64,000 bases of DNA from a virus (taxonomy: Duplodnaviria; Caudoviricetes): positions 3,311-67,310 of the IMG/VR virus record IMGVR_UViG_2634166314_000001; one strand, 5' to 3'. Both the position numbers and the translations under genes were made by a program. Below, in pieces: positions 3,349 to 21,488 of the stretch (position 1 is its first letter; every line of letters starts with the position of its first letter). The notes under the pieces were generated by a model. The model was not told where the DNA came from. It saw nothing but the letters and a program-made list of their open reading frames with translations, and made no database searches.

Positions 3349-4997
3349 AAACTGTTGCACACTTTGACACTATCGCAAAATTTAAGCCTAATTCAGTTAT
3401 TATAACTAAAAGATGGGTTCAATCTGAACGATCAGAGGAAACAACTCAAAATGAAGTTTCCTTGGCGAATTTGCTAAAAGATGGAGCAAAGTCTGAAAAT
3501 ATGAACGGGTACTTGTCAGAGGCTTCTAAAAGAAATTTAAAGAACCTGGCAGAAAACTTTCTAATGTCGGTTGAGCTTACTACAGGCATGAAGTATGCGA
3601 CTGATTCAACTAAAAAAAACGGAGAAAAATCATTCAGTTTGCTTGCGGATCAGGTAAAAAGGATTTCAGGGGTCGAATATCAACAAAATAATCAGGTGTA
3701 TCCGACTTTCATAACGTTGACTCTCCCATCAAAGCAACTTCATAATGATAACTATATCAAGAACGAGTGTCTCGACCCATTCATAGAATGGCTTAAATCT
3801 GATCGTGAGTACATTACAAGAAAAGGCAAGGGAAAAGGTTTATTGCAGGGGTGTAATGTAAAGGTATATTTGTGGAGAGCTGAAACTCAGAAAAACGGGC
3901 AGTTGCATTTCCATATAATAGTTGATCGGTGGATAGATAAAGATCAGATTCGTTGGCGTTGGAATCAGATAGTCAATCGGCTGGGCTATGTTGACAGATT
4001 TCGTAATGTGCAACTTCATAAATATAGAAACGGTTTCTCATGCACGGTTGAGGAAATAGAGTCGCAGCGCAAAAAGTTACAGGATAAGTTATTTCAGGCT
4101 AATAAGCATAATCAATTGCCGAAAAATATTCATCCGGCCGTTGAACATGAGTTTATCACAGCTTTCAAGTCTGGAAAAAAAGCGTTTTCTGTGAAAAAAT
4201 CTGCTGAATTGGCAAAATGTGTACTTGAGTACAATTACAGAAAGAAAGTTGAGAATAATTTTACCGATCCTCCAAGTACCCAGGTAATCCCAATTCAGAA
4301 TGCAAAGAGTGTAACAGCATATGTTACCAAGTACATTTCAAAGTCTAGTGAGGAAATTGCTCCGAAATTAAATGATAATCAGGAGTTTGTTGCTACTGAG
4401 GAGTTTGGCAAGTTGAAAAAATATATTGTCAATTATCGTTACGAATTATCACTTGATGGTCAGGAGGTGAAGATTGAGACAAGTCGCCAGGAGTATAAAC
4501 CGAGATTTGAAACAAGGAAGGTCACTGGCCGCTTATGGGGACGAAGCGACTCTCTTTTTGGAATTAAAGCTTTTGAAAAAGCGATTTATACTTACAAACT
4601 TGTTGAGGAGCCAGTCTATGAAACCAGGGTTGAAAATAAAAAAATATTTTCCCACACCATAACTGACCTCTGGGGAAATGAGTCGTTGAAATATGAACAT
4701 AGAGATGTATTAGTTACTGATACTCACTATAAGCGACAAGCTTACGGTATTGAGGATAAAGTAAGCTGGAATTATATAGATTGTTTGAAAAATATTATTG
4801 GAAAAGCACAGATCGATGAAGCGACAAATAAAGTAGGCGGAAGTTTCGTCGCCTTCGGTGGACAGGTCATTCCAGTCTATAAAAAAGAAGAGGGTAAGGT
4901 AAAATACCAAAAGCATTTTATGCAGGAAAATGCGCCAGAGCTTTATAATGAGTACTTAAACCACTATGGCGAAATATTCAAGACCCTCTACGCTTGA
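3345..4997 (+). CDS. Rolling-circle replication initiator (HUH endonuclease)
   Basis: Motif I FITLTL, motif II LHFHIIV (preceded by WRAETQKNG), motif III YVTKYISK. Confidence 0.8.
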   Translation: MKTVAHFDTIAKFKPNSVIITKRWVQSERSEETTQNEVSLANLLKDGAKSENMNGYLSEASKRNLKNLAENFLMSVELTTGMKYATDSTKKNGEKSFSLLADQVKRISGVEYQQNNQVYPTFITLTLPSKQLHNDNYIKNECLDPFIEWLKSDREYITRKGKGKGLLQGCNVKVYLWRAETQKNGQLHFHIIVDRWIDKDQIRWRWNQIVNRLGYVDRFRNVQLHKYRNGFSCTVEEIESQRKKLQDKLFQANKHNQLPKNIHPAVEHEFITAFKSGKKAFSVKKSAELAKCVLEYNYRKKVENNFTDPPSTQVIPIQNAKSVTAYVTKYISKSSEEIAPKLNDNQEFVATEEFGKLKKYIVNYRYELSLDGQEVKIETSRQEYKPRFETRKVTGRLWGRSDSLFGIKAFEKAIYTYKLVEEPVYETRVENKKIFSHTITDLWGNESLKYEHRDVLVTDTHYKRQAYGIEDKVSWNYIDCLKNIIGKAQIDEATNKVGGSFVAFGGQVIPVYKKEEGKVKYQKHFMQENAPELYNEYLNHYGEIFKTLYA

Positions 4998-7827: not shown

Positions 7828-8238
7828 ATGAAGGTACTTGCACTTGTGGAAATAGATCCATTGACTGGAATAATCGTTGAAAAGTTGCCTCATAAAATTT
7901 ACTCTGAAAATTGTTCGGTTGAACGGGCTGACTCTTTCTTCATACAAAGTATTGCATTAAAGAAAGCAAAATCGAATTTGACGGAAATCGAACGAAATCA
8001 GCAAATTCGTTTAACAGCAAATTTCGAAGAAATCGTTAAAATGGGCTTCATACATCACTCGGAATTTGAAAAAGTTATTGAAAAGAAGCTGATCGAAATA
8101 CAGAACCGTATCACACTTAGGTTTTATTACGATTTCTGGATTAAAAAGCCGATTTCAAAGATGCGGTGGAGAATTACTGCAAAAGTGGGCCCGTCTTTGG
8201 TAAAATTCTTAATAAGGTTAAAAAATGGGAAACATTGA
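7828..8238 (+). CDS. hypothetical protein
   Basis: 136-aa ORF in operon. Confidence 0.6.
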   Translation: MKVLALVEIDPLTGIIVEKLPHKIYSENCSVERADSFFIQSIALKKAKSNLTEIERNQQIRLTANFEEIVKMGFIHHSEFEKVIEKKLIEIQNRITLRFYYDFWIKKPISKMRWRITAKVGPSLVKFLIRLKNGKH

Positions 8239-8866
8239 TTTTTTAAGTGATTTCGAAAATGCAGGTAATGATGATTCCTATGGATTATTCAGTACTGAAG
8301 TATCTCAGCCAGCTGAGGAACTATTACCGCACAGGGGTACACCATATCTTGAAAAATCGGGCGATTTCTTGGGAGGATTGTTCAAGACGGTAAATAAGCC
8401 GGAATCAGAATATGAGCCAAAATATTCGAGCGAAGACCTCGAAATTCGTGCTGAATTGATGGTTGATTTGCTAATGACGAAGTTTAATCTGTTTATCGGA
8501 TTGGCTAAAGGCGGAGTTTCGGAACTCGTAGTAAGCGATCAGGATTTGGAAATCTTACGAAATCACCAATTGAATGGATTTCCAGAAAGTGCAGAAACAG
8601 CGGAAATCCGGGAAAGAATTGCTGTTAAGGAAAAGTTGGAGCAAACTCCCCCGTCTGATATGAAGCTAAAGCGGGAAATCTTGAAAAAAGCCGTAAAACT
8701 GGATTTGGAACGAAAAATGAAAGCGGGAAAACTTGAGGAATTGTCAATTGAAAAAATGATACTAATGATGGTTTCCTCTGAGTTCTCTGTTTTGGTAGGG
8801 AAAAATTACGGGGTATTCAGCTCAATCGGAAAAAATCTCATAAAGAAAGCAAAAGGGTTTTTGTAA
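8225..8866 (+). CDS. hypothetical protein upstream of packaging ATPase
   Basis: Acidic N-terminus, amphipathic basic C-terminus. Confidence 0.65.
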   Translation: MGNIDFLSDFENAGNDDSYGLFSTEVSQPAEELLPHRGTPYLEKSGDFLGGLFKTVNKPESEYEPKYSSEDLEIRAELMVDLLMTKFNLFIGLAKGGVSELVVSDQDLEILRNHQLNGFPESAETAEIRERIAVKEKLEQTPPSDMKLKREILKKAVKLDLERKMKAGKLEELSIEKMILMMVSSEFSVLVGKNYGVFSSIGKNLIKKAKGFL

Positions 8867-8867
8867 T

Positions 8868-9548
8868 ATGGACGGAAGAGGTAACGTGTGGTATCTGTGC
8901 GGTAAGCGGGGAACAGGGAAATCGTTTGAGGCTCTGGAAATCGCTGCGTTTTTCAGGGAACGTAGAGAATCGCCTAAAAGAACGATTATCCTGGATCACA
9001 CCCAAAACGATGATACTTACGGAGGAATTGATGTAATTCAGATTGATGATCTCAGGTATTTGCTGCCTGGGAGAGCATGCGTAAGAGTACAAACCCAAGA
9101 CTGGTCCCGTTTCTTGGATTTCGCATTCAAAATTAAGAATGCTTCAATCGTGATCGATGATGCTACGGGATTATGGAGGGGTAATGTTCCGGATAAACTT
9201 ATTTCGTTCGTTGGACTTGCAAAAAATCACAGATTAGAGTTAATCATGCAGTTTCACACTATTGCGGATACTGCACCATCGATCTTAAAGAGTTGCAATA
9301 TGTTGGTTATAAAACAAACTAACGACTCGTTTCCAATCAAAAAAAGCGCACCCAATTCGCGCTTAATAGAACGAATGATATTGGATTGTGGGGATGAAAA
9401 TTCGAAATATGATCCTAATCGGAAATGGGCTACAAGGTTGGTGGACATAAATGAAGAGATGGTTTATGTTAAAAATCCGACAGTGTCAAATTTTGCTGAG
9501 TCTTATAAACAAAGGAGAGAGATTTCCGAAATCATAAAAACACTATGA
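8868..9548 (+). CDS. FtsK/HerA-superfamily ATPase, putative genome-packaging ATPase (A32/P9-like)
   Basis: N-terminal Walker A GKRGTGKS, Walker B IVIDDA, AKNHRLELIMQFH; only 226 aa, no nuclease domain. Confidence 0.75.
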   Translation: MDGRGNVWYLCGKRGTGKSFEALEIAAFFRERRESPKRTIILDHTQNDDTYGGIDVIQIDDLRYLLPGRACVRVQTQDWSRFLDFAFKIKNASIVIDDATGLWRGNVPDKLISFVGLAKNHRLELIMQFHTIADTAPSILKSCNMLVIKQTNDSFPIKKSAPNSRLIERMILDCGDENSKYDPNRKWATRLVDINEEMVYVKNPTVSNFAESYKQRREISEIIKTL

Positions 9549-9799
9549 AAGGTAAATTCAACTGGTGGAATCTCGTACAGTTTTTCGGGGTTTTAATCGC
9601 ATTTAATGTCATTATCCGGATTTTATTCGGAATCTTAAACAATTTCAGAAAGCCTAGGCCACAACTGGAAATTAAACCAGATATTCAGCCTTCTGTTGAA
9701 GAAGAACGAAAAAGGATTTCCTTAACCTCAGAAGAATTGGACGAAATTGTCAAAAAAAGAGCCAATTCAATCATACAGGAATTGCCACTGGAAAGCTAA
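9545..9799 (+). CDS. small membrane protein
   Basis: N-terminal hydrophobic helix. Confidence 0.7.
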   Translation: MKGKFNWWNLVQFFGVLIAFNVIIRILFGILNNFRKPRPQLEIKPDIQPSVEEERKRISLTSEELDEIVKKRANSIIQELPLES

Positions 9800-9836: not shown

Positions 9837-10073
9837 ATGCCGAATCCGAAGATACGCCCAAAAATGACTCTTAGCGAAATCGCTATCGAGTTTGGGTTTA
9901 CTACAAGAAACGGACCCCATGAAAGAGCGGATTTGAATTATCTGCTCTTTTCCCTTCAACCATACCGAAAGACCCTTATTACCAGATTTAAAACAGATGT
10001 TTGGGCATGGGGAAAACGGAAACCTCTCCCCTATACTGTTATTTGCTTCATTTTCAGCAAGTTTCAATCATAG
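9837..10073 (+). CDS. small HTH-like protein (possible late regulator)
   Basis: MTLSEIAIEFG; LPYTVICFIFSKF resembles DUF4248 C-terminus. Confidence 0.5.
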   Translation: MPNPKIRPKMTLSEIAIEFGFTTRNGPHERADLNYLLFSLQPYRKTLITRFKTDVWAWGKRKPLPYTVICFIFSKFQS

Positions 10074-10116
10074 TTTGTGCGTCACTCGTGCATTACTCGT
10101 GCATACTTCGTGCGTT
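10073..10116 (+). promoter_or_regulatory. Four 11-bp phased direct repeats upstream of structural operon
   Basis: GTGC at 10077, 10088, 10099, 10110. Confidence 0.6.
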
Positions 10117-10219
10117 TTACAGCCGCTTTAAGCCCGATTTAGAGCCAGATGATTTTTTATGTGCTTTATCATTGTGTCATAATTAAGCAGAAAAGCTTTT
10201 TTCACAAAATAGAAAAATT

Positions 10220-10753
10220 ATGTCACAGCATTTAAAATTAATTCTTTCCAATGCTACTGAGTCTTGTGTAGCTGTGTTGTTCCCAGGCGTAGCAAAAGAC
10301 ATTAACGGGCCGGGTAATTACATGTCAGATTCTGCATTCAAAGCGCATCCGGGGAATTTAGAGCTGACGGCAAAGGCCTTCTCTGGTAAGCAACAAATCA
10401 AAATTGATGATCTAATTACTTACTTGAATCAAGTTGGAAACTTCAATATTGAAAACATCTTAGTATTGGCAAACAACGGTGAAAATCAAAATCCTGTTGA
10501 AAGATTCGCTTTGACAGAGTTTAATCCTTTCAGCGATCCAGCTGAGGTTGAAATTGAGTTTGATTTGAAAACTGGTAAAACAGCTGAGGGTCGTTACTTT
10601 GACATGTATCAATTGAGAAATCCAATCGTTCTCAGTCCGCTTACAGTTTTGGCCGTGTGTCTGAAGGGAAGTAGCTCTGATATTGAAATTATTTTCAATT
10701 ATGGTGGTCAGGGTGATTTAGGGATTCCTGAGCAGGAAACACGCATTTTGTAG
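10220..10753 (+). CDS. candidate capsid protein (beta-rich, possibly single jelly-roll)
   Basis: First gene of a 3-gene unit closed by a strong terminator; alternating beta-strand pattern; no TM; fold is inferred. Confidence 0.4.
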   Translation: MSQHLKLILSNATESCVAVLFPGVAKDINGPGNYMSDSAFKAHPGNLELTAKAFSGKQQIKIDDLITYLNQVGNFNIENILVLANNGENQNPVERFALTEFNPFSDPAEVEIEFDLKTGKTAEGRYFDMYQLRNPIVLSPLTVLAVCLKGSSSDIEIIFNYGGQGDLGIPEQETRIL

Positions 10754-10788
10754 TAAGTATTAGAATTTACGCTTAAGCATATATAAGC

Positions 10789-11280
10789 ATGAGATTTTCA
10801 AGACAATATCAGCAACGTGAAGTTGTGTTGGCATACAATGCCGGGGTGAATGTTGGTGTTAAGCCTGCAATCGTATATTATAAAGGGTTGTACTTCATTG
10901 CCCTGTTTGATCCGGATGGAACACATGTTACTATTCTGGGAAAAGAAGGTGTTGTTTCGCGACTTGCCGGAACACCCCAAAAGTTGAATTTTATCAATTC
11001 TTTTGTTCAAAACGATGTGGACCAGTTGGCATTGGAAGCTACTGTTACCGGTATTCTAGGGGCGGGCATTGTAAATACAAGTGTTTTAATATCGACTCTG
11101 ACTGGGTTGCCACTTTCAACTGATGGCTACATTGAGCCTGTAACAACGGTTGATTTTGAAGTTGACTCAGAAAAACAAGCGTTAGTACTTCAACTTGGAA
11201 TTTATCAGTCAATTGTACAGGAAGCCGGATTAGGCGCAAAGGTTAAAGAAAAGCTTAACCGGATCATTGCCGCTTTATAG
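10789..11280 (+). CDS. putative virion structural protein
   Basis: Position in the same 3-gene unit. Confidence 0.5.
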   Translation: MRFSRQYQQREVVLAYNAGVNVGVKPAIVYYKGLYFIALFDPDGTHVTILGKEGVVSRLAGTPQKLNFINSFVQNDVDQLALEATVTGILGAGIVNTSVLISTLTGLPLSTDGYIEPVTTVDFEVDSEKQALVLQLGIYQSIVQEAGLGAKVKEKLNRIIAAL

Positions 11281-11340
11281 CGATCGATTAAAAATAAAAA
11301 AGTAGGGAAACCTCTCAAAATACTCTAAACTGTAATTAGA

Positions 11341-11880
11341 ATGGCAACTAAAATTATCAATCTGGCTCCGAAAGGTGCTATCACAAACGGGCAATCAATC
11401 GGGAGTATTGATTATACAGTTACTGACGTTTCAATCTGGGATTTTAAGCTCGCAACTGTAGGGTCGCGGATCGTACTGTTTGGCAAACACTCATCACAGA
11501 CGAGTTATACCCCATTCTCTAAGGAGACATTGGCCAATATCGCAGAAAGCGATCGTGGTGTGCTAAATGCTGTTCTTGTTAAATACGCTTTAGGTATGGC
11601 TGAATCTACAGGAATGAGCATGCCTTCGATTGACACAACTAAGCAAATTGGTGTGTACACCGATGGTTTGGGTCATTTCGCTGAAACGCCATATACTGAC
11701 GCTTCAAACACGGACACAATTAAAACTATCCTGCAAACAGTTGCAGATGGTACTTCCACTACTACTGGAACAGGAGCAGTGACCCAGGCAAAAAAATGGT
11801 ATCAAAAGCCTATCACATGGGTTCTAGGTGCAGTTGGTGCGGTGGTCGCATATGTACTTGTGAAAAAGTTCTGGAAATAG
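11341..11880 (+). CDS. putative virion membrane protein, C-terminal anchor
   Basis: Thr/Gly linker then WVLGAVGAVVAYVLVKKFWK. Confidence 0.65.
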   Translation: MATKIINLAPKGAITNGQSIGSIDYTVTDVSIWDFKLATVGSRIVLFGKHSSQTSYTPFSKETLANIAESDRGVLNAVLVKYALGMAESTGMSMPSIDTTKQIGVYTDGLGHFAETPYTDASNTDTIKTILQTVADGTSTTTGTGAVTQAKKWYQKPITWVLGAVGAVVAYVLVKKFWK

Positions 11881-11906
11881 CATATGTTTTACCTCTAAAT
11901 AGACAG

Positions 11907-11940
11907 GAGCCTGCTTACTCAGTGTAGGCAGGCTCTTTTT
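11907..11940 (+). terminator. Rho-independent terminator
   Basis: gagcctgcttac / gtaggcaggctc stem plus T5. Confidence 0.85.
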
Positions 11941-11948: not shown

Positions 11949-12635
11949 ATGATAACTATTGAAGCTGCAAATAAAAATCCACTGGTGGTCGCAAGTTCAA
12001 ACCTGACAGTTTGGGGAGAATATGTAAAAGACATAAATATCGCCAGATTGTCAAAAAGCTTGACAACAATTAAGACAGGTGGAAAGGTCGGTGTAATTGT
12101 AGCTACATACTATAGCGGAGATGGTAAACATTTTGCAAAAGTACAGTTAGTCAATCCTGTTTCGAAATTACTTACAAAATACACTCATGGATATGTTTAT
12201 CTGGCTGACGTAAATTTATTTGGTACTGCAGTATCCACTCCTGCTACTGGAAAAACTTATTGGTGTACTGGAAGCAAAGTAAATATTCGGAAGGGTTCTT
12301 CTGTAGCTTCAGCTGTTCTGGCAAAGTTAGATAAGGGTGATGTTATTGGAACTTCAGATGGTATTCTTTATGGACAGTTCTTAAAGTTCAACCTTGCTTT
12401 GGGCGGTGTAGGATATGTTTCAAACCAATATTGCACACTCAAATCGCCTGAGCTTCCCGTAGTAACTCAGCCATTAACCGTCAAGGATTCGACATCAGGG
12501 AAAGAAACAACTGTTCAGATTCCGGTTGTTCAGCCCATAGAGGGATCAATAGACTGGTTGAGACTCGGAGTTAGTATTGTTGCGAGCTTTATCGGTGGAA
12601 TTATTCTAAGAAAAATCTTTAAAAAGAAAGCATGA
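11949..12635 (+). CDS. SH3b-domain protein with C-terminal membrane anchor
   Basis: VNIRKGSS...LAKLDKGD...GYVSNQY SH3b pattern; terminal TM plus KKKA. Confidence 0.75.
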   Translation: MITIEAANKNPLVVASSNLTVWGEYVKDINIARLSKSLTTIKTGGKVGVIVATYYSGDGKHFAKVQLVNPVSKLLTKYTHGYVYLADVNLFGTAVSTPATGKTYWCTGSKVNIRKGSSVASAVLAKLDKGDVIGTSDGILYGQFLKFNLALGGVGYVSNQYCTLKSPELPVVTQPLTVKDSTSGKETTVQIPVVQPIEGSIDWLRLGVSIVASFIGGIILRKIFKKKA

Positions 12636-12698: not shown

Positions 12699-12726
12699 AT
12701 TAAATTACAATTCGAGATATTAAAAT
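12699..12726 (+). repeat. Left terminal inverted repeat of Mu-like prophage
   Basis: attaaattacaattcgagatattaaaat matches reverse complement of 49581-49608 at 21/28, including 14 contiguous bases. Confidence 0.85.
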
Positions 12727-12911
12727 CTGTAATTCAATATATTAAAATTACAAACGCTCAAAGATACATTTCTCCGAGCGTTTTAAATATGTTTTAAAGC
12801 CTTTTTAAAAACAAAATGCCGTTTAGAATTGAGCTTTTATATAAGGCTAATTGAAGCTATTTTTGACAATATTAATCAAAGATAATTTGATTAATGGTAG
12901 AAAAGTTGACG

Positions 12912-12942
12912 AAATCCTGCCTTGTTAGAGACAGGATTTTTT
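12912..12942 (+). terminator. hairpin/terminator near left end of Mu-like prophage
   Basis: aaatcctg...caggattt followed by T run on + strand. Confidence 0.55.
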
Positions 12943-13036
12943 GTTTTGTATAGTTTTGATTTATCTTTACAATCATAATAGGTGTAGAACTTTATTATTA
13001 ATTCCATTTAGCTTTTAGCTTTATGGAATTTTTGTT

Positions 13037-13288
13037 TCAAAACCAAATATTTTCTGGCGTTTCTGGGTCTGGGGCTATACTTAACGCAATAAGACTATCT
13101 GAAAGGTATATATCCTCATTTAATAGCCGAATATTAGCATGCCAACCCTCCGTTTGGCCTATCTCTCCAACGATATTAAGGCAATAATCAAGGGTGTAGC
13201 ATATATATCCTTCATCGCCTATCATTCCGTTTTCTAATAGACAGTCGTCTAACTCCTGTCTATTTTGTGCCTTAATAAATATATCCAT
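13037..13288 (-). CDS. small acidic protein following fibre gene
   Basis: GWHANIRL motif; last gene of tail operon. Confidence 0.65.
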   Translation of the reverse strand: MDIFIKAQNRQELDDCLLENGMIGDEGYICYTLDYCLNIVGEIGQTEGWHANIRLLNEDIYLSDSLIALSIAPDPETPENIWF

Positions 13289-13290
13289 TT

Positions 13291-15105
13291 TTATAAATTC
13301 TTAAGTGTGTTGTCTGCTAATTGTCCGTTATAAACTCTAAACGACTTTATCCAGCCATTCAGGAATTCAATTGCGCCAGTCCTGCTTCCTAGCGTAAAAT
13401 CTATGATATTCGCAGGCAAGGCCGCAACTGGATTATTAAGGGGCGTTCCGTTATCTGCGACGAAAGTAAATCCAGAAGCTCCGTATGAACCAGCGATTTT
13501 ATACGGCGTCTTAGGCAATATGCCCGTAACTGATTGCACTGAGGTAATAGAGTTAGCAACAATAGTCGCAAACTCTTTACTACCACTGAAATTATTTGCA
13601 CGCATATAAACCCTGTTATTAGAAGTGTTGTCACTAGCGAAAAACAGTGCATATCCTACTCCGGAATCAACATAGCTTAGTTGATATTCTGCTACAACTG
13701 AGGCGGCGTTTTTATTCCACCAAGAGCCTACAGGTATGTTGATTAAATCGGCTGCCCTTGTAGCAGTTGCAATACGTGTGTAAATATAACTTGAGGGAAC
13801 TTTGCCAGCCTCAAACTGACTCCCACAGACATAGTAATAGCCGTTATTAACTCTCGTTCCGCTCCCGTCTGCCGTCGCGGAAACAATTGTAACTTTCCAG
13901 TTTGTGTACGAACCGCCCATATTCGCGGCAAAACCTACCCGCATCCAACTATCTTGCTGTTTGTCGAGAAACGCGCCTGAAATATTAACACCTGATGTTA
14001 CACTTGACGAACCAACCGTACCCGTGTTTATGTTGTACCAAACTGCCGCCCTGGCAGTTCCCGTATTGTCTTGAATAAGAAATCTTATCCAGTCGAAGTT
14101 CCCTCTTCTGATAAAATGAGAAGCACAGTAGTAGTTGTTGGCCGTAACCGTAAGGTTTGTTTGTTCGATAAAAGCACCGCCCGAAGAGTCTTCCACAATC
14201 TTAGTTGCCTCTCCTGAAAAATTACCAACTCCGTTGACTTCTGCTGTAAAACCGACGGAAGTAATGCCAGTTTTTGCCCATGACGAGCCGGAATACTCCT
14301 GACTTTGAAGTAGCAAATTGGTCGCAGACCCTTCGACCTTGATGCCTCTAAATGCAAGGGATTGGGGGTCGTATTCGTATCTTGGTGCATAATATTGCGC
14401 TGTGGTCGTTTTTGTGTATGTCAATAATCCGCCTTGATTTGCCGACATACCTGTAATTCTAATTCCACTAACACCGTCGCCCGTATAAGCTGCGACACGA
14501 ACGTTCCAGGTGTACGGGCATGTGCAAAAAAAGGCACTTGCTGAACCGGACGCCACACATTTTATACTGACAGAGCACAAGTACCAGCCGCCTCCTATTG
14601 ATAAAACAGCAGGCGATGAACTTCCCGACGAAGCGGGAATAACTCCTGTTCTTAAATCAAAAACCGCCCAGTCATTCCCGCCAAAAACGGCGGCATTAGA
14701 CCCGATATAAAGCGCACGCCCAGCGTCTTGCGCTAAGCACGAAAAAGTGTAAGTTCTTGCAGGGATACACTCGCCGACAGACTGCGAGATGCGATGTTCG
14801 TTGTTGCTGGCGTCTTCTATGAGCGACCATGCAGCACCAACGCCAGTCGGAATACTTGTATTGTAGGAAGTGATTGAGCCTGCATTCTTAGCCCAGGCAG
14901 CATTACTAAGGTCTTCTGACCACGTAAATACATTTTCCTGACTTGCAACGAGTCTACCAGTCGAATTGAAATACATCGCCCTAGATGGGCGAGTGTAGTT
15001 AATAGTGACGCTCTGGGCATTAGACAAACTCTGAGAAACAGAGAAGTCTAAGCCGAGCGTTAAAGCCATATTTTGGGCTTGTCCAGCCCCTAACAAACTT
15101 AACAT
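13291..15105 (-). CDS. phage fibre/spike protein with repeated carbohydrate-binding-like beta-sandwich domains
   Basis: TRPSRAMYF...G.L, repeated N(V/L)xxxSE/Q..S..W.K units, SSYIYT..ATATRAAD, LamG-like end LNGWIKSFRVYN. Confidence 0.7.
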   Translation of the reverse strand: MLSLLGAGQAQNMALTLGLDFSVSQSLSNAQSVTINYTRPSRAMYFNSTGRLVASQENVFTWSEDLSNAAWAKNAGSITSYNTSIPTGVGAAWSLIEDASNNEHRISQSVGECIPARTYTFSCLAQDAGRALYIGSNAAVFGGNDWAVFDLRTGVIPASSGSSSPAVLSIGGGWYLCSVSIKCVASGSASAFFCTCPYTWNVRVAAYTGDGVSGIRITGMSANQGGLLTYTKTTTAQYYAPRYEYDPQSLAFRGIKVEGSATNLLLQSQEYSGSSWAKTGITSVGFTAEVNGVGNFSGEATKIVEDSSGGAFIEQTNLTVTANNYYCASHFIRRGNFDWIRFLIQDNTGTARAAVWYNINTGTVGSSSVTSGVNISGAFLDKQQDSWMRVGFAANMGGSYTNWKVTIVSATADGSGTRVNNGYYYVCGSQFEAGKVPSSYIYTRIATATRAADLINIPVGSWWNKNAASVVAEYQLSYVDSGVGYALFFASDNTSNNRVYMRANNFSGSKEFATIVANSITSVQSVTGILPKTPYKIAGSYGASGFTFVADNGTPLNNPVAALPANIIDFTLGSRTGAIEFLNGWIKSFRVYNGQLADNTLKNL

Positions 15106-15115
15106 ACCTTTGTCA

Positions 15116-15667
15116 TTAAAGCACTATGCCATTTACATATATTTCCCCCGCTGGAACAGCGTCTAAAACGTTGTCCGCTCCTGATGCTGTGATTGCAACC
15201 CAGATTGTTTGACTGACCTCTGCCGGGATAGACAAGGGAATCGAAACCCCCGCCCCTTGTGTATTTGCAGGAATCGGAAAGGTAAAAAAAGGAACATCCG
15301 TGGTTAGTGGGATAGTTGCTTTTGACCAAAACTTAAGAAATCGCACTACACTGCCTAGGCTTATAGCTGACATTGAACTAAGCTTTTTGAGCGTAGCATT
15401 AACCTGAGTCGGGGTGTTTGAAGTTGCCGAGGAAATTAACTTCCACGGCGTGCCTCCTTTTATTGTAACAGGTAGCCCCCCGCTAACTTGCGCCGGAAAC
15501 TTGGTGTCTATAGACGACAGTGAAGCATTAGCCGCCGTTTGTCCTGCCGCAGAAGTCGGTACGATAGGATTTCCGTCTACGTCGACAAGGAATACAGCCG
15601 GGGCACTAAACGCCCCGACTTTGGTTATAATTGCACCAGAACCATTTGAACTAACTGTACCTGCCAT
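15116..15667 (-). CDS. putative virion structural/fibre-associated protein
   Basis: Small-residue-rich ORF in tail operon. Confidence 0.6.
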   Translation of the reverse strand: MAGTVSSNGSGAIITKVGAFSAPAVFLVDVDGNPIVPTSAAGQTAANASLSSIDTKFPAQVSGGLPVTIKGGTPWKLISSATSNTPTQVNATLKKLSSMSAISLGSVVRFLKFWSKATIPLTTDVPFFTFPIPANTQGAGVSIPLSIPAEVSQTIWVAITASGADNVLDAVPAGEIYVNGIVL

Positions 15668-15669
15668 GT

Positions 15670-18639
15670 TTAAATATCGTTTAATTTGAATATATATAAC
15701 TCGTTAACGCCCGCCCGAACGTCTATCTGACGCTGCCAATTGTAGCCATTTTGGTCGTATTTTACTATAACAGAGCTTTGTTCAACGCCGTAAGGCTGAA
15801 CCGCATAGATTGCAATTAAGTTTTTCGGCCTATTGACAATAGCACGCACGGCGGTTTTTTGGTTAATCTGCCACTCAGGAGCTTTATACTGAACAAATGT
15901 GCTTCCTGAATCGTAGCTAACTTTAGTATTCCATCTTAGGAACTCTGTATTAGCGTCTAACAAATCGGATATTCCGTACAGACTACTAGCGATGGTTGTT
16001 TTTGCAGCGAAAAATCTGTAAAACGCTTTTAAAATGTAATTAAAACCCGACATGTCTTTAACTAGATTTGACAAGGTTGCTCCGTCTTTTGCGACCGGGT
16101 TGATGTCAGGGGCTGGGTCGTGCCACAGGTTTATCCATGCGCCCGTAAATAACGTCAATAATACCTGCCCCTCTGCAATTAACGCAGGCACAGGCTCTAT
16201 AAATCCTGCGCGATAACGGTCTATTGTTACATCCTCGTAGTTTGATGCTCCATTCTCCCCGTAGTTTTTGTAACCTGTTCCACCCAGGTTCATATAGGAA
16301 ATCTCGTGTACAACTGGATTGCTTTTACCGTCCTGCAATAGCTGATAAAATTGAACTTCCGGATTTCCACAGGCCTGAGTAGCCCAATGGCCGCCGTTAG
16401 GATTTGTTCCGTAGTGCGTAACAGCTGGCAGATTGTTGCCTTTTTTATTCTTAATAATACTACCCTCTGGCAAGAAGGTTTCATATTCAAAATACGTTTC
16501 AGTGAAGGCCGAAACCCTTGCCAAATCCGCCACCTTTTGCCCAACAAATGCAGACGGCATTTTTTTGGCTGTCAAATTGGATGTACTTTGGACTGGCTGA
16601 TACCAAAGTGCATTTCGCCCCGCATTCGTATAGTGGTTCAAATTTGGTCTGCCAAACGTAAAGACAGGACAGGTTGGGTACATTGTATTAACCCAGCAGT
16701 TTGACGTACTCGCCTGCATTAAATAGTATAGCCAGCCGTAATGTCTTGCCCGGAACTCTAAATCGTCAAGGCCATTTGTGAAACCACCCCAATTTTCCAT
16801 GTCCAGCAAAATAGTTTTTGCATTTAATAGATAGTTTGGCGTAGCCGGGTCGCCAAATCCGTAACCTTTCGCTCCGAAGCCTTGCAAAATAGCTTGTTGG
16901 TAACTGCTATTGCCATTATCTTCAAAGTAATCTAAAGTGTGGTCTCCCGCATCTATATGTAGATTAAACGGAGCGGAGTTCATCCAGCCAGTACCAGTCC
17001 AAAACGACCGTCTGAAGAATGGTAGCGTACTGACATACGCAGGATTTGCGTGCGGGTAAGACCCGTCAAATTCGCTTGGTTGCACACAGGCCGAGACAGT
17101 CGGCGTAGAAAATCCACGCTTGTATAGCTTATCTAAACCAAACTGATTCCTGCCGCCCGTACAGAATATAATTTGAAAAAACGGCTCTCCGGCTGTGTTA
17201 TTCGGTATATTAAAATCCGGAACAGCGTCTACAAGAATCTGATTGTATTGTGGCGAGTCTGTGACTACTGTATTTACAATTCTGAACGCCTCCGTAGAAG
17301 TTCCGCCACCTGAATCCGGGGCAGTTGGAATTACCGGATTTGCGACGGCTTCAATTGACTGAATTTTAGAAATAACCAACTGTCCTATGACTTGGTTTCC
17401 GGCATAATTCGGGTGAACCCCGTCGAACCTTGCAGCCCCTGAAATGTCTACGGAATGGTTATACGGGTTCTCTGAAACAATCGTATCAATTGTGGCATTA
17501 AAATACCCAAAATCTGCCCACGGGCGACAGATAATAATATGTGTTGATAAACCGAGTTTTGCACGAACACGACCTAATAAATTGGTCAGCCTGTCGTAAT
17601 AAATTGATGGCGTAACCCCGATTGCTTCGTGGTTTGCTGAATCGTTTACGGCAAGCTCTACAACTACATAAGGAGTAAAGGTTCTTCCAGCCGCAGCAAT
17701 AGCCGCCTTCATTGCATCAATGCGCTGTAGCATTGTATCCGCGTAGCCCAACCCGGCTGTAAATTGACCTACAAACGCACCTCCCTGAGCTATTTTCAAA
17801 AGATACGCGTCGTTCTGGTCAAACACATTATTCTCTATCGCTTTTGCGATATATAATTCTATTCCGTGTGTGTTTGCGATTGATTCGTTATCCGCCAAAT
17901 CGCTATTTACACCGATGCTTAGATTCTCTACAACCATTGTATTATTGTTGAGAATCTTGATGCGATTATAGGCGCGAATGTCACCAGTCGGAGCGCCAGA
18001 GTTGGCCGCACGGCCGCCCATGATACTGCTACCTAATAATACAAATAGACGGCGGTTATTAGTTTGCCCACTCGAATCAGGAGTCGGCGCAATTACTGAG
18101 CCAGCACCGTCTAAAATGTGCTTAAACTTGATTTCTGAGGTCGTGTCTGTTGTATGGGAACAACCAAAAACACCATGCCAGTAGTCAGTTCCGAACCCCG
18201 AAAAGAAGTTCTGTACCTCGTGTAACAATACCCACGCAATTGCGGTTGTAGTTGGCGAATCTGTACTGTAATACAATTTAACAGAAAGCCCTGTTTTTTG
18301 AACACGCAACCACACCGGAACGGCTTTTCCGTCTACAGATTTAAGTTGCTGAACCTGTCCGTTTGATGCTTTTGAAAGCACGACGATAGAGCCATTGGGC
18401 ACTATACAAATCCAGATTGCGGCATGCGCTGCAACCGACGGCATTCCGTTATGGATTAAGCAGCCAGCCTTAGCGAAACTGTTAGTGTTTTGCTGGCTTT
18501 CGACAAGGCAAACTTGGTCTATATCCACGTTGCTTTCTTTCTTGCAATACCAATTGTATTGTGTCTGGTCTTGCCAAATATCTGCGCCTTTTCCAAATAA
18601 TTGAAGGTCTCCGTTTCCGTTATATGAGTAATTAGCCAT
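15670..18639 (-). CDS. large tail spike/receptor-binding protein with SGNH (sialate O-acetylesterase-like) domain
   Basis: LLGSSIMGG, AQGG, AVND and DGVHP blocks between an N-terminal lectin-like domain and a large C-terminal domain. Confidence 0.7.
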   Translation of the reverse strand: MANYSYNGNGDLQLFGKGADIWQDQTQYNWYCKKESNVDIDQVCLVESQQNTNSFAKAGCLIHNGMPSVAAHAAIWICIVPNGSIVVLSKASNGQVQQLKSVDGKAVPVWLRVQKTGLSVKLYYSTDSPTTTAIAWVLLHEVQNFFSGFGTDYWHGVFGCSHTTDTTSEIKFKHILDGAGSVIAPTPDSSGQTNNRRLFVLLGSSIMGGRAANSGAPTGDIRAYNRIKILNNNTMVVENLSIGVNSDLADNESIANTHGIELYIAKAIENNVFDQNDAYLLKIAQGGAFVGQFTAGLGYADTMLQRIDAMKAAIAAAGRTFTPYVVVELAVNDSANHEAIGVTPSIYYDRLTNLLGRVRAKLGLSTHIIICRPWADFGYFNATIDTIVSENPYNHSVDISGAARFDGVHPNYAGNQVIGQLVISKIQSIEAVANPVIPTAPDSGGGTSTEAFRIVNTVVTDSPQYNQILVDAVPDFNIPNNTAGEPFFQIIFCTGGRNQFGLDKLYKRGFSTPTVSACVQPSEFDGSYPHANPAYVSTLPFFRRSFWTGTGWMNSAPFNLHIDAGDHTLDYFEDNGNSSYQQAILQGFGAKGYGFGDPATPNYLLNAKTILLDMENWGGFTNGLDDLEFRARHYGWLYYLMQASTSNCWVNTMYPTCPVFTFGRPNLNHYTNAGRNALWYQPVQSTSNLTAKKMPSAFVGQKVADLARVSAFTETYFEYETFLPEGSIIKNKKGNNLPAVTHYGTNPNGGHWATQACGNPEVQFYQLLQDGKSNPVVHEISYMNLGGTGYKNYGENGASNYEDVTIDRYRAGFIEPVPALIAEGQVLLTLFTGAWINLWHDPAPDINPVAKDGATLSNLVKDMSGFNYILKAFYRFFAAKTTIASSLYGISDLLDANTEFLRWNTKVSYDSGSTFVQYKAPEWQINQKTAVRAIVNRPKNLIAIYAVQPYGVEQSSVIVKYDQNGYNWQRQIDVRAGVNELYIFKLNDI

Positions 18640-18640
18640 C

Positions 18641-19651
18641 TTACAAGTTAGGAACTGTTACGTATGTTGTTGAGAAATAAAATGTATTGGTAGGGGCATA
18701 AAATGCCCTTAACTGAAACTGTCCTGTTTGTCGGTGAAAGTCTGTCACGGGGAAGCTATTGGAGTCTGTAAATCCCCCCGCTGACACCTTAAAACTAAGT
18801 ACATAATTGTCGGGGTTAACATAATTTACTGTTGCGTATGTAACATCCCCGAGCTTCGCAAACGTAACACTTGTAATCCGTGCAGTGCTGTCATAAGAAA
18901 TCTGCACATCTCCGCCAGTTTCACCGTATGTCCAGCCCGCTGACTCGTCCACGACCGGAACACTTGCGCCGTATCCAGTTTCGCCGTATGTCCATCCCGT
19001 CGGGTTCGTTCCGGCCGTTGGGATAGTTAAGCTAATCGAACGAGCAGCAATAAGTACACCTGTATTGCTTAGCTCTGACACATAGAAAATATAAGTCTGA
19101 CCAGGAACTACATTAAACGCATTGTTACTTTGTTCGTCACCCTGATTCTTTCTATAAGAAAGTTGCTTGCTTGCTGGATTATTAACAACAACAGTCGCAA
19201 TCATAGTCCCGGAAACTTCCTGCAAATCAACGCGTGTAATGCTCCATGTGACTTGTACGGGGATGTATTTATTTACATCGTCCCGGATTACCGCCATATA
19301 CTTACTTCCGATACAGAAGTGAGAGAGAAACTCTCTAATGGCAAGTTCTGTTAGCTTACTGGTGTCGGTCGGAATAATTACAGCAACAGTAACAAGTCCT
19401 GAATAAATCTCCTTTAATGGGTCGTCGAAAGCAATCTGTACATTAAAGTACTTTTTAATTGCTGCCGCTAAGCTTCCTTCTTGCGGTGTTACCCGTAAGC
19501 GTTCTTCTTGCTTTGCCAGTTCGGAAATTGCATTATTATTAATCGCTGCAATATCCGTAAACAAGCTTGATATAAAATTTATGTTTACTGAATTTCGGTT
19601 GTCTTCCGGGAGCAGAAATTCAATAAGTTTTGCCAAATTAAATGATACCAT
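18641..19651 (-). CDS. baseplate wedge/tail fibre attachment protein
   Basis: Follows baseplate J-like gene; internal repeat GWTYGETG x2. Confidence 0.55.
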   Translation of the reverse strand: MVSFNLAKLIEFLLPEDNRNSVNINFISSLFTDIAAINNNAISELAKQEERLRVTPQEGSLAAAIKKYFNVQIAFDDPLKEIYSGLVTVAVIIPTDTSKLTELAIREFLSHFCIGSKYMAVIRDDVNKYIPVQVTWSITRVDLQEVSGTMIATVVVNNPASKQLSYRKNQGDEQSNNAFNVVPGQTYIFYVSELSNTGVLIAARSISLTIPTAGTNPTGWTYGETGYGASVPVVDESAGWTYGETGGDVQISYDSTARITSVTFAKLGDVTYATVNYVNPDNYVLSFKVSAGGFTDSNSFPVTDFHRQTGQFQLRAFYAPTNTFYFSTTYVTVPNL

Positions 19652-19652
19652 T

Positions 19653-20462: not shown

Positions 20463-20672
20463 TTATGTTACGATTGGGCTGTACGGGCTTAAAGCGCGCA
20501 CGGTTTGCGGTTTGATTTTGTCGTCCCTGATTTCTAAACTCAGATTCGTAATCGGGTCTGTAAGCGAGGTTAAAGCGTTATCCTCAATGAGCCACTGTAC
20601 GCCTGCTATATCACCGTAAAACTGTAGCGCAACATCATACAGCGTCTGTTTTTGCTTAACTTGATATTTCAT
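20463..20672 (-). CDS. LysM-like tail protein X
   Basis: QTLYDVALQFYG. Confidence 0.75.
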   Translation of the reverse strand: MKYQVKQKQTLYDVALQFYGDIAGVQWLIEDNALTSLTDPITNLSLEIRDDKIKPQTVRALSPYSPIVT

Positions 20673-20946
20673 CCGCTAACAGGGTTTTAATGTCGGCAGC
20701 CTGCAAATCTGCATTAATTCCGACCTGATTTAGTTCGCCTAAGACGATACGATTAAGTGCGACTGTTGGGGTTGTGGAATTGACATAATCCAAGATTCCA
20801 ACCCCCGAAATCGGCTCGAATTTATTACCACCTTTTCGGGTCGTAATAACCGACTTAATTGCCTGGTTCGCTCCGTTGGCGATGATTATATCACCGTTAT
20901 TCACAAGAATCTCGCCTGCGCTATTTGTTAAAATATCGGTTATCAT
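20656..20946 (-). CDS. baseplate gp25/gpW-like protein
   Basis: DIL...GD..I, KG..KFEP..GVGI. Confidence 0.6.
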   Translation of the reverse strand: MITDILTNSAGEILVNNGDIIIANGANQAIKSVITTRKGGNKFEPISGVGILDYVNSTTPTVALNRIVLGELNQVGINADLQAADIKTLLADEISS

Positions 20947-21473: not shown

Positions 21474-21488
21474 TTTTTTAAAAGGTTT

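Follow-up and report, generated by a model that had tools for sequence, protein, structure and literature searches.

The window analysed here, a 64,000-nucleotide stretch of DNA, contains a compact unit of three plus-strand genes whose products of 177, 163 and 179 aa we call p177, p163 and p179. The initial annotation had described these genes as the major structural unit of a virus with no full-length double-jelly-roll (DJR) capsid gene, lying between phased repeats and a strong terminator. The three ORFs (10220-10753, 10789-11280 and 11341-11880), the repeats and the terminator are all real. They belong to a rare, integrated outer element of about 33-38 kb, carried by a soil or freshwater bacterium. 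Its copy in the window (copy A) is interrupted by a 36.9-kb Mu-like prophage, and a second, uninterrupted copy (copy B) lies on a separate contig (L003) of the same genome. Related loci are counted below as 18 sources, all of which carry the ATPase and p213. The features are as follows.

3345..4997, + strand: M13/plectrovirus-type rolling-circle replication initiator (Rep, 550 aa) of the outer element (Pfam PF23343 REP_ORF2-G2P, E 2.2e-8)
8225..8866, + strand: p213, helical, its N-terminus Pro-rich and variable, encoded immediately 5' of the ATPase gene (iterated HMM)
8868..9548, + strand: P-loop ATPase (226 aa), candidate B204/A32-type genome-packaging NTPase (PDB profile search)
9545..9799, + strand: 84-aa protein with an N-terminal transmembrane (TM) segment (translation)
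9837..10073, + strand: 78-aa protein, possibly a small regulator that binds DNA; its gene stops immediately upstream of the repeats (HMM homologues in 6/18 sources)
10077..10120, + strand: 11-bp phased direct repeats with units starting GTGC (four units by eye)
10165..10180, + strand: 16-nt block TTTATCATTGTGTCAT, shared unchanged by copies A and B and lying about 40 nt before the start of p177
10220..10753, + strand: p177, soluble beta-rich orphan, candidate shell or vertex protein (low-confidence jelly-roll-like AF2 model)
10789..11280, + strand: p163, soluble orphan (homologues in copy B, in P0004, probably of a third genome, and in two other-genus relatives)
11341..11880, + strand: p179, C-terminally membrane-anchored (7 orthologues aligned with 2 soluble paralogues)
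11905..11937, + strand: intrinsic-terminator-like hairpin (14-bp stem with 7 G-C pairs, 5-nt loop, T-run)
11949..12635, + strand: p228, with SH3-type wall-binding-like domain(s) and a C-terminal membrane anchor (NCBIfam)
12699..49612, no strand assigned: Mu-like transposable myovirus prophage, outside the three-gene unit (junctions mapped against copy B)
49613..64000, + strand (integrase on -): right arm of the outer element (75-93% identity to copy B)

Tandem Repeats Finder places the 11-bp repeats at 10084-10113, with a score of 42, 2.8 copies and 90% matches. Within the 64-kb window, positions 10085 and 10096 are the only two with the exact word CTCGTGCAT, and the repeats are partly conserved in copy B. 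The block TTTATCATTGTGTCAT is likewise unique in the window. A promoter here is putative: a scan for sigma-70 sites, as distinct from the promoter type of the host phylum, showed no enrichment (11 sites vs 9.6 expected). On the other side of the unit, the hairpin that follows the p179 homologue in copy B (L003:11364-11396) is the same letter for letter. Terminator-like sites in the region are not above chance (3 vs 2.8 expected), and in one related locus (L026) no such plus-strand site follows the p179 homologue. Between the ATPase gene and the repeats lie two small ORFs. An ORF of 84-87 aa follows the ATPase in most related loci, mostly with a TM segment predicted by a crude rule, and the 84-aa protein itself has a sequence homologue in copy B only. 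Its 78-aa neighbour is possibly a helix-turn-helix protein as judged from its letters, a reading that drew no supporting family match. The products of the unit are orphans: p177, p163 and p179 gave zero matches in Pfam, PHROG and NCBIfam, and none carries a signal peptide by eye.

Mapping the prophage junctions against copy B bears out the earlier proposal that one element is nested in another. The insertion splits the gene that comes next in the outer element, leaving about 22 codons on its near side, and the inserted DNA encodes an HK97-type capsid, sheath, tape measure, baseplate, terminase, portal, MuA- and MuB-like proteins and a repressor. Terminase, portal and HK97-fold capsid are confined to 12699-49612; none of the terminase, portal, HK97 capsid or tail families was found in the outer element (Pfam, PHROGs; NCBIfam on 43 ORFs), which is not of the tailed-phage type. 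Copy B and the left flank likewise yielded no terminase, portal, HK97 capsid or conjugation gene. Instead, its left part encodes the 550-aa Rep, which also matches phrog_3419 (E 1.2e-4), is 90% identical to its copy-B counterpart and retrieved by tblastn of phage records only three Inoviridae sp. Rep genes (E 3e-3, 9% query coverage). The right arm carries genes for two SLT transglycosylases, a papain-like enzyme, a 706-aa beta-helix protein, a transglutaminase-like protein, ArdC and the integrase, together with a membrane-anchored SGNH/SASA-like esterase and many other membrane-anchored proteins. About ten element proteins combine a soluble N-terminal domain with a single C-terminal TM segment and a basic tail, and the outer element encodes holin- or spanin-like small membrane proteins in addition to several wall-lytic enzymes. 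Of the features of a conjugative or mobilisable Bacteroidota element, ArdC is the only one present: Tra/T4SS, coupling-protein and relaxase families matched 0/43 outer-element ORFs in NCBIfam at E <= 1e-3 and none in Pfam.

The two copies differ in an instructive way. Their ORFs are 33-93% identical overall, and copy B has four extra ORFs whose matches in a Pfam-only scan are a helicase and a TIR domain only. The block that runs from the gene for a 326-aa protein through the ATPase to p179 has diverged as one (38-60% identity), whereas identity is 75-93% on either side of it, and the change occurs precisely at the terminator common to both copies. Joint divergence of this block is what would be expected of a co-adapted morphogenetic module. 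Full-text searching, at the level of result listings, found no papers on such elements in Runella, Flectobacillus or Siphonobacter.

Where, then, would a capsid gene be? Capsid families of Pfam, PHROG and NCBIfam found no match in copy A and its left flank. Among outer-element ORFs of 240-710 aa, most can be assigned: a PAPS-reductase-like protein (310 aa), an N6-methylase (298), Rep (550), a C5-methylase (444), an SLT enzyme (239), the beta-helix protein (706), the SGNH/SASA-like esterase (420) and ArdC (490). The remainder are the 326-aa protein, which is helical and charged, and two membrane-anchored proteins of 248 and 255 aa, so that neither copy contains, at the sequence level, a soluble 240-450 aa ORF without assignment. 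The claim that the outer element has no soluble ORF of DJR size holds at the level of sequence profiles, and at that level no DJR capsid gene was found in the left flank, the window or copy B. Considered as a hidden DJR capsid protein, the 420-aa ORF was rejected for its SGNH-type blocks (GHSF, HGDND, D-x-LHLN), present across four homologues, and its terminal TM segment; the 326-, 213- and 136-aa ORFs were rejected as capsid candidates for being helical and charged.

The ATPase gives the element its clearest viral affinity. Searched against 177,635 PDB sequences, a profile of six family members ranked B204 of STIV first (4r2h_A, E 1.8e-4) and B204 of STIV2 second (4kfr_A, E 4.1e-4); DnaB came third (E 0.06), about 300-fold behind this pair. 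The alignment with STIV B204 is nearly full length (residues 6-201 vs 5-201 of 210). Single-sequence Pfam matches are weak and mixed, with Pox_A32 and Zot each matching one of the six members (E 0.0055 and 0.095, respectively). By hhalign, the family aligns with ORF13 of P23-77 at 91.9% probability (E 6.8e-7), but a RecA control scores nearly as well (91.0%, E 1.1e-6), so that only the PDB ranking is specific; the PM2 ATPase family reaches 17%. A tblastn search of 50,697 phage records returned no match at E <= 1. One IMG/VR contig drawn in by the ATPase alignment (L013) was dropped as unrelated, its protein being a RecA accompanied by DnaB and primase. With moderate confidence, these comparisons place the ATPase in the A32/B204 packaging type of the FtsK/HerA superfamily. 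Its constant companion is p213, which adjoins it in 18/18 sources by iterated HMM; the p213 profile has no meaningful match in the PDB and none in Pfam, PHROG or NCBIfam.

The initial annotation had singled out p177, perhaps together with p163, as a possible single-jelly-roll (SJR) or split capsid. The AF2 model of p177 is an 8-9-strand beta-sandwich of low confidence (pLDDT 53.1, pTM 0.52; 74/177 residues below 50), with a core at residues 75-164 that reaches pLDDT 59-80 by 10-residue blocks. In VIA-align, viral jelly-roll capsid proteins make up 17 of the 50 best rows, among them the Faustovirus major capsid protein (MCP; Z 6.6, the best score), the phiCjT23 capsid protein (Z 6.2), PR772 (Z 5.8) and SPV1 (Z 5.3); all fall short of Z 8, a level that according to the tool is common for unrelated models. 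Foldseek against the PDB gave the STMV coat protein as the best match (E 2.7e-3) and nothing at E <= 0.001, and against BFVD a single uncharacterised match (E 7.5e-4, TM 0.39). A second-look structural alignment again yielded jelly-roll neighbours, and the three solved-structure searches agree. Lectins, CBM32 modules, nucleoplasmins and TNF-like proteins are jelly-roll neighbours too, so that sharing the fold does not imply a capsid. The ESM Atlas model was too poor (pLDDT 0.45) to give usable neighbours. The jelly-roll proposal for p177 thus survives in part: the beta-sandwich and its neighbours speak for it, the pLDDT of 53.1 and the lack of any Z >= 8 against it. We infer a jelly-roll fold from the model, and on that footing a capsid role for p177 is tentative, somewhat short of an even chance.

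Sequence comparisons portray p177 as rare and fast-evolving. Among 1.84 billion cluster representatives, it has homologues in one other cluster only (P0002, 38% identity); a word-indexed search found p177 itself only, a profile search added copy B only, and a scan of genome, viral and metagenome contigs with the p177-P0002 alignment found nothing. The two copies in one genome are 52-56% identical. In several homologues the C-terminus is an acidic tail tipped by hydrophobic residues, which is not typical of capsids. The p177 profile has no meaningful match in the PDB. In hhalign, p177, p163 and p179 compared among themselves and with candidate ORFs of one related locus (G356) gave nothing above 1.2% probability, and the same ceiling applies to the three families against P23-77 VP6, VP11, VP15, VP16, VP17 and VP20, PM2 P1 and P2 and the FLiP MCP. 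Even a true relative would not be expected to show sequence similarity to the P23-77, PM2 or FLiP capsid proteins.

The suggestion that p163 is a jelly-roll partner of p177 drew no support from the models. Its AF2 model is unusable (pLDDT 36.0), and the visible part is mixed alpha/beta, not all-beta; the ESM Atlas model (pLDDT 0.38) is also too poor to have usable neighbours, and the family profile has no meaningful PDB match. Homologues of p163 are 58% (copy B), 75% (P0004) and, in two relatives from another genus, 26-29% identical. The third protein, p179, consists of an N-terminal domain of about 120 aa, a Gly/Ser/Thr-rich linker, a C-terminal transmembrane helix and a short tail that is Lys-rich in most members and acidic in the second genus. 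Its residues 4-118 match a soluble early-region ORF (1325-1792, E 1e-7) and the copy-B homologue of that ORF (E 4e-12); a soluble early-gene paralogue of this domain would be unusual for a capsid component. Beyond the terminator, p228 matches SH3-containing wall-binding families of NCBIfam at E 5.6e-7 to 1.3e-4, all far below the cut-offs. It is 85% identical to its copy-B homologue, and counterparts with 27-39% identity follow p179 in the second genus and in G356.

Across related loci the unit is patchy. Whereas the ATPase and p213 occur in 18/18 sources, p177 and p163 occur in 4/18, and p179 together with p228 (by HMM) in 7/18. Three loci titled Siphonobacter keep p179 and p228; p177 and p163 were not found there, and their position is occupied by membrane proteins and p179-type domains. 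Neither p177 nor p163 was found in the approximately 38 kb of G356 that were examined. Two genomes of another genus preserve the gene order ATPase ... p177, p163, p179, p228 at 27-39% identity, the ATPase itself being 37-38% identical. In the third genome the p177 homologue (P0002) is just 38% identical, while the p163 homologue P0004, probably of that genome too, is 75% identical. In modules of this kind the major capsid genes are normally conserved best, and the scarcity of p177 and p163 among ATPase-bearing relatives, as far as sequence homology can reveal it, speaks against a capsid role. Separately, the loci titled Siphonobacter encode a 157-aa protein whose alignment has a probability of 35% (E 4e-4) with the p179 family and of 6% with p163; we regard this as a lead only.

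Among known systems, the Thermus phage P23-77 (Matshushitaviridae, Helvetiavirae), an icosahedral virus with an internal membrane and two single-jelly-roll capsid proteins, offers a close parallel in layout. In both, a packaging ATPase gene (about 225 aa) is followed by small ORFs and then by two small genes in the structural position (VP16 is 173 aa); in the annotation table the P23-77 order is ATPase, ORF14, VP15, VP16, VP17, and that of PM2 is P9, P7, P2. Location of the unit directly after the ATPase and two small ORFs, as for the P23-77 and PM2 capsid genes, counts in favour of a capsid operon. P23-77 and the element further share a PAPS-reductase-like gene (27% over 124 aa, E 1e-9), virion-type lysozyme/transglycosylase genes, many small membrane proteins and ATPase families that align over 146 columns, including the motif after Walker B. 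No sequence similarity was found between p177 or p163 and VP15, VP16 or VP17. The second protein is 163 aa and not predicted all-beta (VP17 is 291 aa), and the element, at 33-38 kb, is roughly double the 17 kb of P23-77 and carries an M13-type Rep and an integrase. B204 of STIV and STIV2 (4r2h, 4kfr) is of the same length class as the element ATPase and aligns nearly end to end, but STIV, which infects archaea, has a DJR capsid protein, and none was found in the element.

PM2, a Pseudoalteromonas phage (Corticoviridae), resembles the element in its rolling-circle Rep and in its layout, with the ATPase P9 (218 aa), a small ORF, the capsid gene and then small membrane proteins. Both would be temperate-type, tailless and membrane-containing; PM2 differs in its 269-aa DJR capsid protein and 10-kb genome. 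The M13-type initiator recalls inoviruses. The element is 33-38 kb long, as compared with about 5-15 kb for Inoviridae, whose major coat protein is short, and the Zot/pI-type morphogenesis ATPase of Inoviridae is membrane-anchored, whereas the 226-aa ATPase has no TM segment. The pleomorphic membrane-vesicle viruses of the Pleolipoviridae and Plasmaviridae, which to our knowledge lack a capsid protein, have membrane-anchored structural proteins, a rolling-circle Rep in some cases and a P-loop NTPase whose role is unclear; they infect archaea or wall-less bacteria, have genomes of 7-17 kb, and are likened to the element by description only. FLiP, a Flavobacterium phage (Finnlakeviridae), shares the host phylum, and the capsid chain of phiCjT23 is among the p177 model neighbours (Z 6.2). 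FLiP has a 311-aa DJR capsid protein, which p177 and p163 do not match in hhalign. In the portions of PMC5894146 used here, FLiP is presented as a 9-kb ssDNA virus without a packaging ATPase, contigs of the FLiP group encode a rolling-circle initiator resembling that of M13, and the capsid protein of FLiP is unrecognisable by sequence, so that DJR proteins can escape sequence detection.

Taken together, the best explanation is, tentatively, that the three genes form the late structural operon of a tailless, membrane-containing virus-like element. Gene order, repeats, terminator, the affinity of the ATPase to B204, synteny in a second genus and the absence of any recognisable capsid, tail or conjugation gene are the observed parts of this picture. 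We posit that the element would replicate by its M13-type rolling-circle initiator, that the three genes would be transcribed separately from their surroundings and presumably at a high level, and that the B204/A32-type ATPase would package the element's DNA. In the particle so envisaged, p177 would be the single-jelly-roll-type protein of the outer shell or of the shell vertices, p163 a second soluble virion component, and p179 would be tail-anchored in a putative virion membrane, to which the many small membrane-anchored proteins point indirectly, with its N-terminal domain toward the shell, while p228, the SLT enzymes, the esterase, the beta-helix protein and many of the membrane-anchored proteins could form the entry and exit apparatus. 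The overall picture drawn by the initial annotation is retained as to gene layout, nesting, lack of a DJR gene and a jelly-roll-like p177; it is weakened by p163, by the confidence of the models and by the patchy occurrence of the genes.

There are rival readings. The particle may be enveloped or pleomorphic and have no icosahedral shell; tail-anchored proteins would then stud a vesicle, with p177 and p163 serving as internal matrix or genome-associated proteins or not being virion proteins at all. Such a particle would suit the roughly ten tail-anchored proteins, which include surface-type enzymes (the SGNH/SASA-like esterase, an SLT transglycosylase) as well as p179, p228 and the 255-aa protein, the loci titled Siphonobacter that lack any p177- or p163-like soluble beta protein, and the acidic, hydrophobic-tipped tails of several p177 homologues. 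Yet an internal membrane would be equally expected to hold tail-anchored proteins, the best match of the ATPase is the motor of viruses with preformed icosahedral shells, and the p177 model is jelly-roll-like; we consider a shell-less particle unlikely. We assign a similarly low probability to the unit being a variable, moron-like accessory cassette that serves to exclude superinfection, to modify the host surface or to interact with the host in some other way. The private repeats and terminator, the occurrence of p177 and p163 in only 4/18 sources, the fast divergence of p177 (52-56% between copies, 38% in the third genome) and the lack of family matches are consistent with a cassette, but the p177-p163-p179-p228 order is retained between genera with identities (27-39%) similar to the 37-38% of the ATPase, the unit diverges along with the ATPase block and not alone, p179 and p228 reach 7/18 sources, and by eye none of the three proteins has a signal peptide.

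Two further readings are less likely still. As a minor vertex protein, such as a penton or spike knob, p177 would leave the role of major capsid protein to a divergent, unrecognised protein elsewhere in the element. PR772 chain 6q5u_O (124 residues, Z 5.8), PRD1 P5 and TNF-like knobs are among its model neighbours, and its high variability would suit an exposed position; neither copy, however, has a soluble 240-450 aa ORF left for such a protein, the leftovers being helical or membrane-anchored, and we think this quite improbable. Least probable of all is a non-viral, integrative plasmid-like or mobilisable element in which the ATPase would act in partition or transfer. The rolling-circle initiator, ArdC, integrase, methylases, defence-like cargo of copy B and weak, mixed Pfam matches of the ATPase could be read that way, but 0/43 ORFs match conjugation, relaxase-coupling or T4SS families, B204 comes first in the PDB search, and the element encodes a depolymerase-like beta-helix protein, an esterase, wall-lytic enzymes and holin- or spanin-like proteins.

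In its fullest form, the structural-operon reading would make the element a new lineage of temperate, tailless membrane viruses of 33-38 kb that joins a Varidnaviria-type ATPase to an inovirus-type Rep and has an SJR shell made of p177, with or without p163, which was swapped or lost in sister lineages; we regard so complete a scenario as possible but somewhat doubtful. As far as homology searches reach, such elements occur in few genera of one bacterial family. The element family is marked by the p213-ATPase pair (18/18 sources), yet none of its proteins can be named as the capsid. Detection of tailless, membrane-containing phages usually relies on the capsid gene, so that a lineage whose capsid is unrecognisable or non-canonical escapes notice. 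An intact copy B in the same cultivable-type genome makes the question accessible to induction and proteomics. If p177 is a shell protein, the family would represent a new bacterial single-jelly-roll capsid lineage, with a bearing on the origin of DJR proteins from SJR ancestors, and, were the new lineage confirmed, it would be the bacterial equivalent of the two-SJR and DJR capsid architectures or a stage on the way to them. Sister lineages without p177 and p163 might use this ATPase for a capsid-less membrane particle; and if there is no shell at all, a B204-type packaging ATPase at work in a capsid-less particle would be more surprising still.

All three open reading frames that the initial annotation had grouped as a major structural unit are present on the plus strand, with matching coordinates and lengths, and sequence features flank them on both sides.

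Features of the three-gene unit and its flanks
10084-10113: 11-bp tandem array upstream of the p177 gene, 2.8 copies, score 42
10165-10180: 16-nt block, nearer the p177 start codon than the repeats
10220-10753, plus strand: p177, 177 aa
10789-11280, plus strand: p163, 163 aa
11341-11880, plus strand: p179, 179 aa
11905-11937: hairpin with a 14-bp stem and a T-run, downstream of the p179 gene

By eye, four repeat units starting with GTGC extend across 10077-10120, in the putative promoter region. The 16-nt block occurs once in the window and has the same sequence in copy B, an uninterrupted second copy of the outer element in the same genome (contig C16, ~289,000-327,200; stretches L002-L004); the terminator hairpin is likewise identical in copy A, the window copy (11905-11937), and copy B (L003:11364-11396).

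The window spans 565886-629885 of contig C27. The outer element, the integrated element that carries the unit, starts ~6 kb left of the window with two HTH repressor-like genes and reaches at least the integrase at the window's right end. Host genes precede it, for an encapsulin with a cysteine desulfurase, for an AraC regulator and for a methyltransferase. The host encapsulin, of type 2A (SrpI-like), adjoins a 650-aa cysteine desulfurase (L001:9161-12023 in the left flank, minus strand), ~2 kb left of the element. Nested within copy A is a transposable myovirus prophage whose G+C exceeds that of its surroundings and which encodes an HK97-type capsid, sheath, tape measure, baseplate, tail protein, terminase and portal, together with an endolysin, holin, repressor and MuA- and MuB-like proteins.

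The nested prophage and a right-arm enzyme of the outer element
12699-49612: Mu-like prophage, 36.9 kb
44533-45459, minus strand: MuB-like gene of the prophage
45495-47621, minus strand: MuA-like gene of the prophage
48355-49059: repressor gene of the prophage
58947-60209: 420-aa SGNH/SASA-like esterase of the outer element, with an N-terminal beta domain and a C-terminal TM segment

Because the prophage lies inside an outer-element gene (~22 codons into the one after p228 by alignment of the two copies, with TATG at both junctions), copy A is probably disabled. Minus the prophage, the outer element measures about 33 kb and copy B about 38 kb; copy B has ~5 kb of extra cargo (L003:1287-5826) encoding a 747-aa superfamily-2 helicase and a 269-aa TIR-like protein, possibly a defence system. 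Most genes in the two arms match between the copies at 75-93% identity (one early ORF at only 33%), and identity falls to 38-60% in the stretch that starts with the 326-aa gene, includes the ATPase and ends with p179. This block-wise divergence implies that the ATPase and the three genes were inherited, or exchanged, as one block. High identity returns at the identical terminator, with p179 just upstream only 50% identical; the terminator marks a sharp recombination boundary between the divergent block and the conserved right arm.

The early region encodes a PAPS-reductase-like protein, N6- and C5-methylases and a 550-aa rolling-circle initiator of the M13/plectrovirus type (PF23343, E 2.2e-8). 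The PAPS-reductase-like gene (window 35-967) shares its annotation with ORF3 of Thermus phage P23-77 (27% identity over 124 aa, E 1e-9). The central block encodes a helical protein of 326 aa and one of 136 aa, p213, a P-loop ATPase of 226 aa, a TM protein of 84 aa and a further protein of 78 aa. Next come the three-gene unit and then p228, with SH3-type wall-binding-like domains and a C-terminal TM segment. The right arm encodes ~10 small proteins that each have a single C-terminal TM segment and a basic tail. It also encodes two SLT transglycosylases, a permuted papain-like enzyme, the esterase and a 706-aa beta-helix protein resembling pectate lyases, with a transglutaminase-like protein, ArdC and the integrase at its far end. 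The esterase blocks GHSF, HGDND and D-x-LHLN are kept in four homologues, and the product is a predicted membrane-tethered enzyme of receptor-destroying type, which phages do not usually encode. Among the scanned outer-element ORFs, no terminase, portal, HK97 capsid, tail or conjugation family was matched (Pfam and PHROGs; NCBIfam on 43 ORFs). The annotated absence of a candidate of double-jelly-roll (DJR) capsid size also holds at the level of sequence profiles, which leave no soluble ORF of 240-450 aa unassigned.

Against 177,635 distinct PDB sequences, a 6-sequence profile of the ATPase ranks STIV B204 first (4r2h_A, E 1.8e-4; residues 6-201 aligned to 5-201 of 210) and the STIV2 genome-packaging NTPase B204 second (4kfr_A, E 4.1e-4), followed by DnaB at E 0.06; with a 4-sequence profile, B204 comes third (E 0.014). 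Pfam matches Pox_A32 in one of six family members (E 0.0055) and Zot in one of six (E 0.095). In hhalign, an 18-member alignment reaches 91.9% probability with the packaging ATPase of P23-77 (146 columns, E 6.8e-7) and 17% with PM2 P9; this pairwise score to P23-77 is non-specific because the RecA control scores equally (91.0%, E 1.1e-6), five other NTPases (P-loop ATPases and helicases) reaching at most 2.1%. The specific evidence is the unbiased PDB ranking and a shared stretch after Walker B, which argue, with moderate confidence, for a B204/A32-type packaging enzyme.

p177, p163, p179 and the homologues tested have no Pfam, PHROGs or NCBIfam match except one weak, unnamed PHROG for one p179 homologue, and 1.84 billion cluster representatives yielded a single other p177 cluster (P0002, from a third genome; 38% identity). 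The AlphaFold2 model of p177, built from a 3-sequence alignment, has nine strands and one helix (mean pLDDT 53.1, pTM 0.52; 59-80 by 10-residue blocks in the core, 75-164). Among 48,161 PDB representatives no match reached Z 8, below which the comparison tool itself warns that scores are common for unrelated models; the best was a Faustovirus capsid protein (Z 6.6). Viral jelly-roll capsid proteins make up 17 of the best 50 matches, including phiCjT23 (Z 6.2), adenovirus hexon, PR772, SPV1 and nano-, gemini-, como-, nepo-, luteo- and satellite-virus coats; the others are lectins, CBMs, nucleoplasmin and similar sandwiches. Foldseek gave no PDB match at E <= 0.001 (top, STMV coat protein, E 2.7e-3, TM 0.24), a second-look alignment gave the same picture as the other structure searches, and BFVD returned nothing interpretable. 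On these matches p177 is, tentatively, a probable jelly-roll-class beta-sandwich. Its homologues bear acidic C-terminal tails that vary in length and finish in a hydrophobic tip; these are long in copy B and P0002, missing in the second genus, and reminiscent of SSB or nucleoplasmin tails.

The p163 models (AlphaFold pLDDT 36.0, Atlas 0.38) are too poor for fold assignment; the weak AlphaFold model places strands N-terminally and helices C-terminally. p179 comprises a ~120-aa N-terminal domain, a Gly/Ser/Thr-rich linker, a C-terminal TM segment and a short tail that in most members is rich in Lys. The N-terminal domain has a soluble paralogue in the early region (ORF 1325-1792; E 1e-7, or 4e-12 for the copy-B homologue). 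A third, weaker relative (157-160 aa) precedes the p179 homologue in Siphonobacter-titled loci.

The element family is rare: of 401 genomes sampled from the order, 3 yielded the ATPase, and of 401 sampled from the family, 3 yielded p163. A one-genome-per-species scan of 185,579 species gave 16 loci, all titled Siphonobacter, Flectobacillus or Runella. In the 18 sources compared (both copies of the window's genome and these loci, with those coinciding with related genomes G486, G403 and G356 counted once), p213 always adjoins the ATPase, p179 and p228 each occur in seven, and p177 and p163 each in four, absences that carry limited meaning because six loci end early at contig ends. Two second-genus genomes keep the order ATPase ... 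p177, p163, p179, p228 at identities of 27%, 27-29%, 29-31% and 37-39%, respectively (ATPase, 38%). Three Siphonobacter-titled loci keep p179 and p228, but where p177 and p163 would lie they have membrane proteins together with a protein of 157 aa, whose alignment to the p179 domain is weak (35% probability). The ~38 kb examined in G356 yielded none of p177, p163 and p179; between its ATPase and p228 homologue (L009:13118-17191, minus strand, and neighbours) lie very large proteins, one of 1357 aa with Strawberry-notch-type helicase domains and one of 1182 aa with a transglutaminase-like region, which may be anti-restriction proteins co-delivered with DNA. One second-genus contig holds two opposed ATPase copies ~17 kb apart, an arrangement that suggests two adjacent or nested elements.

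ATPase copies on the second-genus contig (stretch L019; also L026 and L029)
L019:1703-2410, minus strand
L019:19278-19985, plus strand

Downstream of the second of these (L029) are 520- and 1326-aa proteins, without p177 or p163.

We posit that the outer element is virus-like, temperate and tailless, that it contains a membrane and that its packaging ATPase is of Varidnaviria type; p177 would then be its best, and indeed sole, candidate shell or vertex protein of jelly-roll type, and p179 a tail-anchored membrane protein. This is the most economical reading, held tentatively because the fold evidence is weak and p177 and p163 are patchy among ATPase-sharing elements, a distribution that one would not expect for a major capsid protein. 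A capsid-less particle, enveloped or pleomorphic, would fit well with the many tail-anchored enzymes and with Siphonobacter-type elements that have no p177-like protein; set beside the capsid proteins among p177's structural neighbours, it is unlikely, and a three-gene unit serving as a variable accessory cassette, given second-genus genomes that keep its order and others that lack it, is no likelier. Less probable still is a minor vertex role for p177 while another gene encodes a capsid protein that escaped recognition, every DJR-sized soluble ORF having its assignment by sequence profile, and a non-viral element, beside the B204 ranking of the ATPase, is the least probable of all.

The three-gene unit of this putative tailless element occupies the position of the capsid genes in P23-77, which follow the ATPase (ATPase, ORF14, VP15, VP16, VP17), and an equivalent position to that in PM2 (P9, P7, P2). 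According to PMC5894146, FLiP-group phages from this host phylum pair an M13-like initiator with a capsid protein undetectable by sequence; the paper also shows that surveys seeded with capsid genes would overlook a family of this sort. A full-text literature search found no such elements, and the supplements of PMC5894146 may include proviruses of the host family. The family is a candidate Varidnaviria-like provirus without an identifiable capsid gene, and the intact copy B makes the hypothesis of a single-jelly-roll or split capsid testable.
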